The notes beneath the pieces are model-generated. The model was given only the letters and a program-made list of their open reading frames with translations. It had not been told where the DNA came from and made no database searches. From the IMG/VR virus record IMGVR_UViG_3300045988_122866, positions 26,982-90,981 of that record: a DNA stretch of 64,000 nt, one strand, 5' to 3'. The stretch comes from a virus. Below, piece by piece: positions 26,288 through 40,222 of this stretch. The translations under genes and the position numbers were made by a program. Positions within the stretch are counted from its first letter, which is position 1; each line of letters starts with the position of its first letter.

Positions 26288-26869
26288 TTGCCTAATACAT
26301 TAAATAAATATGTAAAATTTGTCAGAGGTTCTAAAACCGCTTTTGAAAATTTAGGGACGAAAAGAGACAATGATACTTTATATTTTATTTATGGAGAAAA
26401 TGATTCTTCTGGAGAACTTTATTTAGGTAGTCGTCTAATTTGCGGTGGAATTAGTTCCGCAGGTAAGTTAAGCGATTTAAGTGATATTGTTCTCAATGAA
26501 GTTAAGACAAATCAAGTTTTAATTTATAATGAAGAACAAAAGAAATGGGTTAATTAGGGTTTAGAAAATAATGAGACTTTAATTAATTCTATTGTTGAAA
26601 AATTATCTACAGAAGAAAATTTAGCTAAATTAGCTCCTGTTTTTAAGGGTACAGTCCCAGGTTTAGTTCCAGTTTCTTTACATGAAATCAAAGGAAAACA
26701 TATTCTTACTGATGCAGGCACATGGATTAATATGCCAGTAGGAACATTAACTTAGGGAGATATTGAAACAATTAATATAGCTAATAAATATTTAGTAGAT
26801 AAAGGTCCTGATAATTTGGTAACTCGTGTTGAAGCAGTTGAACAAACTGTTTCTTGGTCTGATATTTAA
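26288..26869 (+). CDS. Tail fiber / receptor-binding paralog A, about 193 aa
   Basis: TTG start after RBS AAAGGAG. Its N-terminal motif (KFVRGSKTAFENL…LYFIYGE) is shared with the genes at 26884, 28664 and 39095. Two in-frame TAG; stops at TAA. Confidence 0.55.
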
Positions 26870-26883
26870 AGGAGTGAAAAAGA

Positions 26884-28545
26884 TTGAACGTTAAGTTTTT
26901 AAAAGGTTCTCAAGCCGAATTTGAAAATGTGGCAGGCAGATATAAACCTGGTGCATTTTATTTAGTAATTAATGATGATAAGTCCGCAGAGGACTATAAA
27001 AAGCCAAGCCGTCTTTATTATGGCGTAGATGAAAATAATTGTGTTCCTGTAAATCAAGGTATTAATGTAGTTGATACTACCGCAGGTTTACCTCAAAGTT
27101 TTGCTCAAAACACTGCTGGTGAATTTTATTATGTAAAAGATAAAAATATTTTATGTATTAATAATGGTAAAGGTTGGATTCAAACTAACACCGATACTGT
27201 TTTAGATACTAATAAAAAAAATAGCAATGTATCAGTAAACAGCAATCCTGAAAAACCTAATGGAGTTTCTATAACTAATACTATTGCTGACAGTAGTGGT
27301 AATATTATTACTGAGACTTATGATATTATAGGTAGCGATTATATCCAAATTGAAGCAGTTCCTGCTGTTGATGATAAAGGTGTAGACACTGTTAAACTGA
27401 GTTTAAAAGGAATCAATTATCAATTAAGCTCTTCTTTAAATGAAAAAACTTTAAATGTTAATTTGAAAAATACTGATACTGACGCAGGTAATTTTAATAT
27501 TATTGCTGGTAGTAATGTTAATATTGCTGAAACTTCTACAGGAAACTATACATTAAGTGTAAATAAAGCTGTTGATAGTATTGATGTAGTTAATCACGGT
27601 ACTGGTACTGGTTTTACTGCTTCTATTAGTGGTCCTGGTGTTGAAGGAGCTGGTAATGGTACGACTTTATCTGCTGATATTGATCCAGAAATTGCTTTAG
27701 AAGGCAAGACTGGTAGCTACAAATTTAAAGATGGCGTTTTAACTCTTCCTGTTTATAGCAAACAAGATATTGATAATCAACTTAGAACTATTAATGCTAT
27801 GGTATTCCGTGGCGGATTCCAAGTTAAAGATGGAGCTATTGCTTATGATAATTCTGATATTACTGAAATTACTGAAGGTAATACCTTTATTTATACTGGA
27901 GCCGAAGATACACTTTGGAATGGTCATTATTTACGTCCTGGTGATTTAATTATTGCTTCTGGTGAAGAAGTTAATGGGGTTATTACTGGTACTATTAATT
28001 GGACCTATGTTCCTTCTGCCGATGATCCTGTTACTGAAATTGAAGGAGCCAATGATAATAGTACTGCTGGTTTTATCATTAAACTTGGTTCTACTAAAAA
28101 ACTTTTAGATTATGCTCTTAACGGTGAAAGTGGTATTGTTTTAGAAACAAAAGTTTTAACAGATTCAAAAGGTCAACCTACTAATTCTAAAGTTGTTACT
28201 ATTAAACATAGTAATACTTTAACTGTAAATACTCCAGTTTCTCAACCCTATGCTGATGAACAAACTATTACTATTAATGAGCCAACTGAAATTGATGCTC
28301 AAGGGCATGTAATTAAATCTACTCAAAAAACTTTTACTGTAAAAAATACTCATCAAGAAATTGCTAATGCAGATTATACGGTAAATGGTACTGATACTTT
28401 AATTCCTAATCTTAAAGTTGCTGGTGCTGATCTTGAAGGCAAACCGCTTGTTTTCACTAGTAATAGCCTAAAGGTTAATGTTTCTGCGGCGACTGCGACT
28501 GATGATGCTAAAGTTAATTTTGAGTTAGAGTGGGGAACATTCTAA
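26884..28545 (+). CDS. Tail fiber / receptor-binding paralog B, 553 aa with no TAG codons
   Basis: Intact in the supplied track. The N-terminus (KFLKGSQAEFENV…FYLV) matches the shared anchor motif. Confidence 0.65.
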   Translation: MNVKFLKGSQAEFENVAGRYKPGAFYLVINDDKSAEDYKKPSRLYYGVDENNCVPVNQGINVVDTTAGLPQSFAQNTAGEFYYVKDKNILCINNGKGWIQTNTDTVLDTNKKNSNVSVNSNPEKPNGVSITNTIADSSGNIITETYDIIGSDYIQIEAVPAVDDKGVDTVKLSLKGINYQLSSSLNEKTLNVNLKNTDTDAGNFNIIAGSNVNIAETSTGNYTLSVNKAVDSIDVVNHGTGTGFTASISGPGVEGAGNGTTLSADIDPEIALEGKTGSYKFKDGVLTLPVYSKQDIDNQLRTINAMVFRGGFQVKDGAIAYDNSDITEITEGNTFIYTGAEDTLWNGHYLRPGDLIIASGEEVNGVITGTINWTYVPSADDPVTEIEGANDNSTAGFIIKLGSTKKLLDYALNGESGIVLETKVLTDSKGQPTNSKVVTIKHSNTLTVNTPVSQPYADEQTITINEPTEIDAQGHVIKSTQKTFTVKNTHQEIANADYTVNGTDTLIPNLKVAGADLEGKPLVFTSNSLKVNVSAATATDDAKVNFELEWGTF

Positions 28546-28606
28546 GGGCAATACTATTTAATAATAAATATAATTTTTTCTATTTTATATAGAAGAATGT
28601 TTTTAT

Positions 28607-28644
28607 GGGGAAAGATGAAATATTCTTTCCCCATATTTTTTTTA
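28607..28644 (+). terminator. Rho-independent terminator
   Basis: Stem GGGGAAAGA / TCTTTCCCC followed by ATATTTTTTTT. Confidence 0.65.
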
Positions 28645-28663
28645 GGATAGAAAGGAGTAAATT

Positions 28664-38395: not shown

Positions 38396-38400
38396 GATAA

Positions 38401-39021
38401 ATGATAACTAATCCAACTGATTATTATAGTGTTTTACATCAAATACAAGATGAAAACTTTCCAGTTAAGTATCCTGCTCTTCCAGCCCCAGAAGATGAAA
38501 AGTTAGTTTAGATAGATTTAAACTCAAGAACTATTAGTAATGAAAATAGTTATATTACAGTTGAAGGCGATCACGCTGCTGAAATTATTTATTTTGAAAT
38601 AGATAGATATTTTGATACTATGGATTTAACTAATATGATGTGTATTATTTAGTATATTAATGCTGATAATGAAAAACGCATTTATCCCGTTCCATATTAT
38701 GATACTTTAACTCACAAAGATAAAATTATTTTTCCTTGGGTTTTAAATTATAGTGCTACTAAAAAATCTGGTACTTTAAATTATATGATAACTTTTTATA
38801 AAATAGAAAAAGATTCTAATAATTTACTATATAATTTAAATACATTACCAGCAAGTCTTTAGGTTTATTCTAAACTTAATTTAGATTCTATCGTAAAAGA
38901 AGAAGATTATTATGTAATTGATGATAGCCAAGTAGTACAACAAATTTGGGAACGCTTAGCACGTTTAGAAGGATTTGTTGGCGGTAATGGGTTGGATGTT
39001 TATTGGATTGTTCTCGAATAA
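38401..39021 (+). CDS. Structural protein of about 206 aa, a paralog of the N-terminal region of the 36716 gene
   Basis: Shared motifs with the upstream gene: DH.AE.IYF.IDRYFD … NTLPA. Frame 1 runs to TAA 39019-39021 with 4 in-frame TAG. Confidence 0.5.
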
Positions 39022-39029
39022 ATAAACTA

Positions 39030-39070
39030 AATGGTATAGAATTATTAATTTAATTCTATACCATTAATTT
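39030..39070 (+). terminator. Hairpin terminator
   Basis: Stem AATGGTATAGAATT / AATTCTATACCATT. The downstream T-run is weak. Confidence 0.45.
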
Positions 39071-39094
39071 ATAGAAAGGAGTTATTGAAGATCG

Positions 39095-40222
39095 ATGGCT
39101 CTATTTAAAATTTTAAAAGGTGATTCAGATAGATTAGTCACCTATGATGCGAAAGCGGTTAATGGAAAAATACCCTTTCCATCTTTAGATTCTGGAAAAA
39201 CTTTATTTACAACAGTAGAAAGCACTCCTATTACAGAGGGCTATGCTTATTTTACAGAAGATACTCATAAATTTTATATTGACACCGCGGACAAAAGATT
39301 AAATCTATATACCGATCATGCGGATTATGCTACCTATGATGAAAATGGTCGTAATTTAGCGGAATTGTCAGAAGTATCTTATGAAAATATTGATGATACT
39401 GGAAGCAAAATTGGTACAATAAATATTAATGGAATTGAGCATAATGTTACTTGTCCTGCAAATATAGTGAGCAAACCTGTAAATAAATATGTGTTTACAG
39501 CAAAAGCAAATTAGAATACATTTACCATTCCTTTTGATTTTGATGATAGCAGTGCTTTAACTTTATATTACAATGGTATTATGTTAAAAGAAACAGATCA
39601 TTATACTATTAAAGGAAAAATTATTACTTTAAATGGGTGGACCAGCGAAGCTAATGATTATCTCGCGGTTATGGGTATTGAAGGAGCTGCCGCGATTAAT
39701 GTAGATGAAAAAGTTGCTTAGATTTAGGAAGCAGTAGATAATGCTGAAATAACTATTAATAATAAAGTAAGTAGTGCTATTAAACAAATTGATGATAAAT
39801 TAGCAACTGTTCCTGACGACGTAACACAAGCAGTATATAAAAATAAATCTAATATAATGACTGCGGACGGCAGAATTATTATGGATAGCAGCTATGTTCC
39901 TACGGCTGATATGGAGTTAGCTACAAAGAAATATGTGGATAATGCCACCCCAGCTCAATTCTCAACTAGTAAAGCTGGTGTTGTTCCAAAGTCAGACGGT
40001 AGTACAACAAAATACTTACGTGCTGATGGCGCTTGGGCAACAATAGATAAAACTCCAGTAATTGGCACCACTACCGATTATGCCATTTATATTGGTCCAA
40101 CTTCACCTGCTTCTGGAACTACACCATTATTATGGATAGATACAACTTCTTCTACGGGCCATTTAAAATATAGAAAATCAACGACTAGTGCTTGGACTCA
40201 TGTCCCTGTTGCTTGGTCTTAA
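39095..40222 (+). CDS. Tail fiber protein of about 375 aa
   Basis: The N-terminus (FKILKGDSDRL…) carries the shared anchor motif. The C-terminus has a common phage-fiber motif (…TSKAGVVPKSDGSTTKYLRADGAWATI…). Frame 2 runs to TAA 40220-40222 through TAG. Confidence 0.6.

Follow-up and report, generated by a model that had tools for sequence, protein, structure and literature searches.

Profile-based sequence comparison confirmed that four fibre-like genes of an uncultivated phage all encode, at the N-terminus, a diverged version of the same small module, a relationship that comes into view only when profiles are used and the stop codon TAG is read through. The genes, whose products we call gpA, gpB, gpC and gpD, lie in a 64,000-nucleotide stretch of viral DNA (hereafter the window), which covers positions 26,982 to 90,981 of the IMG/VR virus record IMGVR_UViG_3300045988_122866. 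An initial annotation, made from the sequence without database searches, had proposed that the four genes share an N-terminal motif; its coordinates and lengths proved exact once TAG was read through, and the sharing of the motif was upheld. The genes and their modules are given below (aa, amino acids; nt, nucleotides).

26288..26869, plus strand: gpA, 193 aa, TTG start, AAAGGAG ribosome-binding site, two in-frame TAG codons.
nt 26306-26431 (residues ~7-48), plus strand: A-type N-terminal module of gpA, YVKFVRGSKTAFENL…DTLYFIY…GELYLG.
26884..28545, plus strand: gpB, 553 aa, TTG start, no TAG codon.
nt 26884-27060 (residues 1-59), plus strand: 'classic' N-terminal module of gpB, VKFLKGSQAEFENV…GAFYLVI…SRLYYG…VPVNQG.
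nt 27106-27183 (residues 75-100), plus strand: second hairpin-like copy in gpB.
28664..36409, plus strand: gpC, 2581 aa, 27 in-frame TAG codons.
nt 28670-28777 (residues 3-38), plus strand: C-type N-terminal module of gpC, KIRFRPVQG…DGYFYVATDTGRIYLD.
39095..40222, plus strand: gpD, 375 aa, three in-frame TAG codons.
nt 39098-39292 (residues 2-66), plus strand: D-type N-terminal module of gpD, ALFKILKG…(about 30-residue insertion)…EGYAYFTEDTHKFYID.

The source phage has a genome of ~180-200 kb (roughly 190 kb) with low G+C content, a siphovirus-like gene layout and TAG read as glutamine (Gln) in its late genes. Under translation table 11, the gpA-gpD interval broke into short open reading frames (ORFs) and its genes looked fragmented. 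The internal stops in the four frames were nearly all TAG, and in gpC the 27 TAG codons stand against a single TGA terminator. ORF coverage in the window grew from 40.8 kb to 69.2 kb when TAG was read through, and the plus-strand genes came out clean and tightly packed. In an alignment of gpC with eight orthologues, Gln made up 22.8% of the residues at TAG-aligned positions, compared with a background of 2.1%, and on the strength of this enrichment TAG=Gln was taken as the working code. The late genes on the plus strand (636-40669) hold 207 in-frame TAG codons, a density of 16.1 per 1000 codons as against 3.7 in the minus-strand replication genes. Such concentration in late and structural genes has already been described for TAG-recoded (code 15) gut phages (bioRxiv 10.1101/2021.08.26.457843). 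The window resembles the phages of Borges et al. both in this distribution and in carrying, within intact genes, in-frame TAG codons that align with Gln in relatives; it differs in that no suppressor tRNA lies inside it, as ARAGORN found no tRNA, and hence no suppressor tRNA(CUA), within these 64 kb of the roughly 190 kb genome.

Recoding bears directly on the fibre genes, which standard-code gene calling hides: gpC falls into 28 pieces and cannot be produced without TAG suppression. Its first TAG is codon 10 (nt 28691), inside the module, where the family has R/K or sometimes Q and distant gpC orthologues have R. The gpB gene has no TAG in 553 codons, where about nine would be expected at the late-gene density. 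We considered this as a conserved feature of gpB and rejected it, given that orthologues carry zero to seven; it is a tendency, not a rule.

To compare the N-termini, we aligned the first 70 residues of the four proteins pairwise by the Smith-Waterman method, using 2000 shuffles. The similarity was significant above the shuffles for gpA and gpB (z = 9.1; BLASTP 2.5e-5) and for gpC and gpD (z = 8.0; BLASTP 0.009), whereas all four cross pairs between A/B and C/D stayed at chance level, with z between -1 and +1. Since only these two pairs are significant, pairwise comparison alone would not join all four. A hidden Markov model was therefore built from outside sequences only, namely 139 unrelated 'classic' N-termini from which gpA-like and gpD-like proteins had been excluded, and searched against the ~95 ORFs of the window. 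Its top four hits were gpB (2.8e-18), gpD (2e-5), gpC (2.6e-5) and gpA (0.013), the next ORF following at E=0.23, and every match lay at the extreme N-terminus, starting within residues 1-10. All four thus belong to an uncurated 'FKRG…FYLTTDT-RLYVG' N-terminal family, gpA marginally so by this profile and joined to the others through a profile of the gpB family alone (1.6e-4) and its z of 9. The consensus written in the initial annotation approximates the motif but is loose, and its 'G-E-x-Y-Y…D…L' half matches gpB at its second hairpin (residues 78-92), not its first. Its statement that the C-termini diverge completely held, as those of gpA-gpD are unrelated at the BLAST level.

Bridging sequences tie the two pairs together. 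The intermediates P0048, P0208 and P0219, along with distant gpC and gpD orthologues, show the full classic pattern, and in the family consensus the A/B part (K-F-x-R/K-G…F/L) is joined to the C/D part (G-Y-x-Y-F-T-x-D-T-x-K/R-x-Y-I/L-D). These observations bear on the possibility that the resemblance of A/B to C/D is compositional or fortuitous in an AT-rich genome, leaving just two independent paralogue pairs. Such an origin would fit the cross-pair z values, the outcome of the gpB-family profile for the other pair (E=0.8 for gpC, gpD missed) and the modest 0.013 of gpA. We nevertheless regard it as highly improbable: the outside-only profile places exactly these four genes first, each at its N-terminus and with at least a tenfold gap to the next ORF, the natural intermediates carry the classic pattern, and the predicted secondary-structure pattern is the same.

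Next, 1.84 billion representative proteins (clusters at 50% identity, E<=1e-3) were searched with an N-terminal profile. The family comprises 804 clusters, in which the match falls almost always at residues 1-60, and has the consensus MANVxFKRGTQAxLxxL…DGxFYLTxDTxRLYVG. The module is predicted to span ~40-60 residues and to consist of a beta-strand (h-K-F-x-R/K-G), a short helix, a variable loop and a beta-hairpin (G-x-F/Y-Y-L/F-T-x-D-T-x-R/K-L/I/F-Y-V/L/I-G/D). The same layout appears in AlphaFold2 monomers of gpB and of the gpD homologue P0049. Among 42 family N-termini, 12 matched the Pfam family Mtd_N (PF18454), the best of them with an E-value of 1.8e-6, whereas every other Pfam family was matched by two at most; P0232 and P0328 scored 17.1 and 14.5 bits against Mtd_N. 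An hhalign comparison of the family with Mtd_N-type N-termini aligned them in the expected register (E 0.016), and gpA-gpD, like the 804-cluster family, share the extreme N-terminal placement of Mtd_N. On these sequence comparisons, we describe the module as an uncurated and divergent branch with a relationship to Mtd_N, which stops short of placing it in Mtd_N.

Curated databases otherwise offered little. Pfam gave no match to gpA-gpD except for a sub-threshold hit on gpA, whose residues 10-35 scored 17.2 bits (E=0.003) against PF24243 'Phage_tail_C', a phage tail tip domain, without reaching the gathering score of 23.7 bits; the gpA-like protein P0295, at 24.4 bits, exceeds it. NCBIfam contained nothing relevant, and matches in the PDB to designed 'Cake' propellers and to PBP1a were dismissed as spurious. 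The initial annotation had called the motif one used in many Gram-positive phage fibres to dock onto the baseplate. We found no curated model or named family member to bear this out: tblastn of gpB and of the classic family member P0232 returned no match in 50,697 GenBank phage records, and the nearest curated family, Mtd_N, comes from a Bordetella phage and is itself missed by the window proteins.

Several results weigh against reading the module as an Mtd_N-related virion anchor. Confidence in the N-terminal models was moderate or low (predicted local distance difference test, pLDDT, about 70 in gpB, about 50 in the homologue of gpD), and the models are monomers only. None of gpA-gpD matched Mtd_N in Pfam even at E<=1, let alone at its gathering score of 26.3 bits, and the hhalign probability to Mtd_N-type N-termini was just 2.8%. 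Searches of PDB sequences by phmmer and hmmsearch with gpA, gpD and two N-terminal profiles found no solved relative, and Foldseek of the gpB model against the PDB gave a TM score of about 0.06, the monomer of an elongated fibre being unusable as a query. The tail proteins encoded upstream of gpA had no Pfam match, and no docking partner was identified among them. Finally, the 26-residue PF24243 motif also occurs internally in P0208 (residues 138-162); together with the second hairpin of gpB, this copy suggests that the motif may be a generic structural element and not a dedicated anchor. The gpA-type N-terminus resembles PF24243 in the pattern K-F-x-R-G-t-x-a-a-Y/F-x-x-L…D-T-L-Y-F-I, yet gpA remains under the cut-off and the motif is internal and repeated in other proteins, so the motif by itself does not define an anchor.

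Some of these points would suit a module that is a mere nucleus for folding or trimerisation, a generic beta-hairpin cap, with virion attachment through other parts of the proteins or through adaptor proteins encoded between gpC and gpD. The internal motif of P0208, the second hairpin in gpB, a motif-like stretch inside a 114-aa ORF upstream of gpA and the failure to identify a partner among the upstream tail proteins all speak for it. We think it unlikely, because the 804 clusters match almost always at residues 1-60, because the module of gpA and gpD is more conserved than their distal parts, and because each of the four types is kept orthologously, which implies partner-specific constraints. 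A further objection is that an Mtd_N-like N-terminus replaces the entire module ahead of the same gpD body. In other phages of roughly 190 kb, the gpD body (from about residue 130) stands behind a canonical Mtd_N-like N-terminus (P0105, PF18454 at 2.5e-5) and also behind two further N-terminal types. This reuse of one body is, at the sequence level, the strongest indication that the module may be a portable, virion-specific adaptor.

We then examined the conservation of the four genes among related phages. Searching IMG/VR with the central part of gpC identified 31 related loci at 41-100% identity, and homologues lie on metagenomic contigs of 180-200 kb; megablast of the 16-40.5 kb segment against the GenBank phage records mentioned above gave no match. 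Wherever the fetched stretch reaches the genes, the A-B-C…D order is kept in the 31 relatives, with the module at each N-terminus. Every locus of this gpC scan has both gpA and gpB; in 27 of them gpC was called, and gpD was found in 20 loci. Even the distant lineage L035, whose gpB homologue has 753 aa and roughly 25-30% identity, retains the same block, including small flanking ORFs. The N-termini cluster by type and not by genome: the nearest neighbour was of the same type in 29 of 30 cases, and mean Smith-Waterman scores were 91-146 within types versus 23-59 between types. At the DNA level, no repeats link the four genes, and no direct repeat of at least 40 nt leads from them to another site in the window; a diversity-generating retroelement (DGR) or a recent duplication was accordingly rejected as the origin of the shared motif.

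The sequence comparisons argue for gpA-gpD as an old, fixed quartet of four distinct orthologous module types and not as interchangeable cassettes. The initial annotation had favoured the latter, a swappable receptor-binding repertoire in which the four genes would compete for one docking site, giving heterogeneous or polyvalent virions and ongoing gain and loss. One module family is indeed common to all four genes, and the gpA-gpB segment is hypervariable between close relatives and bracketed by hairpins. We nonetheless find this reading improbable: the order of A, B and C is constant in every relative examined, as is that of D where the locus reaches it, so that the comparison for presence or absence of individual cassettes turned up none of the expected variation in gpA and gpB. 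Pairwise similarity across types is also not significant, we found neither DNA repeats nor invertase sites nor duplications connecting the genes, and the sizes of gpB (541-564 aa in the loci of the gpC scan) and gpC (2466-2720 aa in those loci, 2397-2720 aa in all orthologues) are conserved. Given the conserved order and the four orthologous types, a fixed fibre set with four non-equivalent partners is favoured.

Exchange between relatives is real in the sequence comparisons, at the level of whole genes and distal parts. In close relatives the flanks retain 85-88% DNA identity, while the gpA-gpB segment drops to ~67% or becomes unalignable. Similarity to L001 breaks at about 25845 and resumes at about 28505, near two hairpins that bracket the hypervariable gpA-gpB pair:

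26207..26238, plus strand: perfect 11-bp hairpin, read from the sequence, directly 3' of the gene for a 771-aa protein and 5' of gpA; it lacks a T-run and is hence not in the terminator scan list.
28604..28635, plus strand: hairpin between gpB and gpC, terminator-like and with a T-run, from the terminator scan.

Both hairpins may mark transcription-unit or recombination boundaries. Identities to the window are mosaic from gene to gene: L015 and L018 share 87-100% with gpA and gpB and just 66% with gpC, whereas L001 shares 87% with gpC, 59% with gpA and 42% with gpB. Among distant relatives, gpA and gpD keep 44-58% identity in the N-terminus as against 23-33% in the remainder, and lengths differ (192-439 aa for gpA orthologues, which are present in all relatives, and 323-1116 aa for those of gpD); for gpB and gpC the difference between N-terminal and distal conservation is small. 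A conserved anchor with a variable tip is thus seen in gpA and gpD, along with gene-wise mosaicism. The modular evolution suggested by the initial annotation agrees with these mosaic identities and with the reuse of the gpD body behind other N-termini.

Beyond the module, the four proteins differ widely. In gpA a 145-aa stub follows, for which we obtained no informative match and none in PHROGs. The remainder of gpB is all-beta and ends in ELEWGTF; its AlphaFold2 monomer (pLDDT 68) places a strand at residues 5-9, a helix at 10-15 and strands at 25-29 and 41-47. PHROGs gave no match for gpB, and its top matches in BFVD were uncharacterised gut-virome proteins, followed by one 'Major tropism determinant' and minor tail proteins. 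The centre of gpC matched PHROG families of unknown function (phrog_14959 at 7.6e-52 and phrog_24896 at 9.4e-25), and its C-terminus resembles BspA-type leucine-rich repeats (LRR_5, 25 bits, below the cut-off). A possible CotH-like stretch at residues ~1430-1480 of gpC was considered and dropped, as Pfam lent it no support in the whole protein or in segments. From the monomer model of P0049, which is 97% identical to gpD (pLDDT 56), gpD is predicted to continue as a beta-sandwich (~131-195), a long helix (~204-238) and a small C-terminal beta domain. This model had 159 BFVD matches at E<=1e-3, many of them to fibre, tailspike or depolymerase proteins; they include T7-fibre-N-terminal-like proteins, pectate-lyase tailspikes, K64-1 depolymerase and annotated tail fibres.

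Beyond the observed module homology, N-terminal position, synteny and mosaicism, we infer trimerisation, docking and receptor binding along the following lines. Each protein would trimerise through its N-terminal module, which would fasten the fibre to a partner site of its own, located either on the tail tip or on another fibre, while the unrelated C-terminal bodies would contact the host. These bodies would be the 145-aa stub of gpA, an all-beta shaft of 500 aa in gpB, a multi-domain adhesin of 2.5 kaa (thousand amino acids) with LRR-like repeats in gpC, and a sandwich, coiled-coil and knob in gpD. Changes in host range would come about through recombination, with whole genes or module-distal parts being replaced. 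Because the four module types appear ancient and orthologously conserved, all four fibres are most likely mounted on the virion, each at a site not equivalent to the others, and their presence on one particle at once is plausible. Taken as a whole, docking mechanism included, the reading of the modules as ancient, orthologously conserved types that are diverged paralogues of a distant Mtd_N branch is in our judgement somewhat better than an even bet.

More speculatively, the module may represent a large, uncurated N-terminal adaptor superfamily, sister to Mtd_N, that has split across the ~180-200 kb TAG-recoded clade into four orthogonal 'address labels' (A-D), each sending its fibre to its own tail-tip site. 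We offer this as a tentative possibility. If it were true, the natural swaps of Mtd_N-type and D-type modules in front of one body would demonstrate label portability, and the labels would amount to a readable addressing code for the assembly of multi-fibre virions.

The genomic setting is consistent with the fibre array of the initial annotation: the genes sit in a tail/fibre block just upstream of a holin gene, and the gpA-gpD interval is probably, as the best explanation overall, the distal tail/fibre module of the phage. Upstream of gpA, the order is a tail-tube-like virion protein, a tape-measure-like gene, three large proteins (768-1128 aa, one of which matches a PHROG 'tail protein' family), the 114-aa ORF and the 771-aa protein, the last two being kept as neighbours in L001, L003 and L035. 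If the tape-measure-like product sets length as usual, its size would give an unusually long tail. Other features of the region are as follows.

6120-14606, plus strand: tape-measure-like ORF, 2828 aa, 88 in-frame TAG codons.
23537..23881, plus strand: 114-aa ORF with a motif-like stretch at residues 32-71 (FKNNNQNVLITQLGIQTLPGTKFYLNDSSNAIIVGNTG), sub-threshold at E=0.23; an orthologue occupies the same position in L035.
23884..26199, plus strand: 771-aa protein with a coiled-coil-rich C-terminus, a candidate fibre or attachment partner.
36419..39021, plus strand: three genes between gpC and gpD, namely a 66-aa ORF (36419-36619), g36881 (36881-38395, possibly starting at 36716) and g38401 (38401-39021).
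40259-40669, plus strand: holin gene (phrog_13712, 3.5e-37), directly downstream of gpD.
40668-40711: bidirectional terminator from the terminator scan, which with the holin gene marks the end of the late structural block.
40714-41430, minus strand: 238-aa ORF just past the lysis cassette, with the look of a response-regulator/LytTR-type DNA-binding protein, judged by eye only.
Minus-strand replication genes: PolIII-alpha-like (50646-54659), NrdD-like (47781-49790), helicase and primase.

By the outside-only profile, the fibre motif is absent from all three genes between gpC and gpD. Two of them, g36881 and g38401, have in common an N-terminal domain of ~140 aa (…H-x-A-E-x-I-Y-F-x-I-D-R-Y-F-D…; BLASTP 1.7e-17) with DNA-level repeats at 79-80% identity, and form a block that is syntenic in L001 and L035. 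Pfam and PHROGs gave neither of them an assignment; a role as adaptors for gpD is possible.

The group to which these phages belong is abundant, uncultivated and recoded, most of its structural genes lack annotation, and the 804-cluster profile provides a sequence handle for finding receptor-binding proteins in metagenomes. If the module is a virion-attachment label, it marks the boundary between phage-specific and host-specific parts in four fibres, and with it natural junctions for fibre swapping.

Among curated families, Mtd_N offers the closest comparison. In phage BPP-1, the tail fibres end in Mtd, a trimeric receptor-binding protein (PMC2408619), and its N-terminal beta-prism is presumed to attach it to the tail fibre (PMC10743442); even for this reference family, docking is presumed, not proven. 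The module resembles Mtd_N in being short and at the extreme N-terminus of a receptor-binding or fibre protein, in the pattern F-x-R/K-G-t…hydrophobic…G-x-h-h-h-x-D-T-x-x-h-h-h-G, and in occupying the same place ahead of the same gpD-type body in other phages. The differences are that gpA-gpD miss the Pfam model, that their bodies are unrelated to Mtd, and that the comparison here draws on sequence and monomer models. Moreover, they have no C-type lectin variable region, template/variable repeat or DGR signature, and Pfam detected neither CLec nor a reverse transcriptase (RT) domain in them.

Multi-fibre and branched receptor-binding systems in which conserved N-terminal anchors are followed by variable distal domains include the tailspikes TSP1-4 of CBA120, Klebsiella phage K64-1 and the gp17 N-termini of T7-like phages. 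The present system, known from its genes alone, differs from these in its anchor family, its siphovirus-like layout, its 2828-aa tape-measure-like gene and the size of one of its fibres, 2581 aa. It resembles them in clustering several fibre genes, in combining conserved N-termini with fast-changing distal parts, in mosaic exchange, and in the matches of the gpD model to T7-fibre-N-terminal-like proteins and the K64-1 depolymerase. The design of a conserved anchor and a variable tip is therefore well known, while the module family and the recoded phage clade that carry it here are uncurated and poorly charted.

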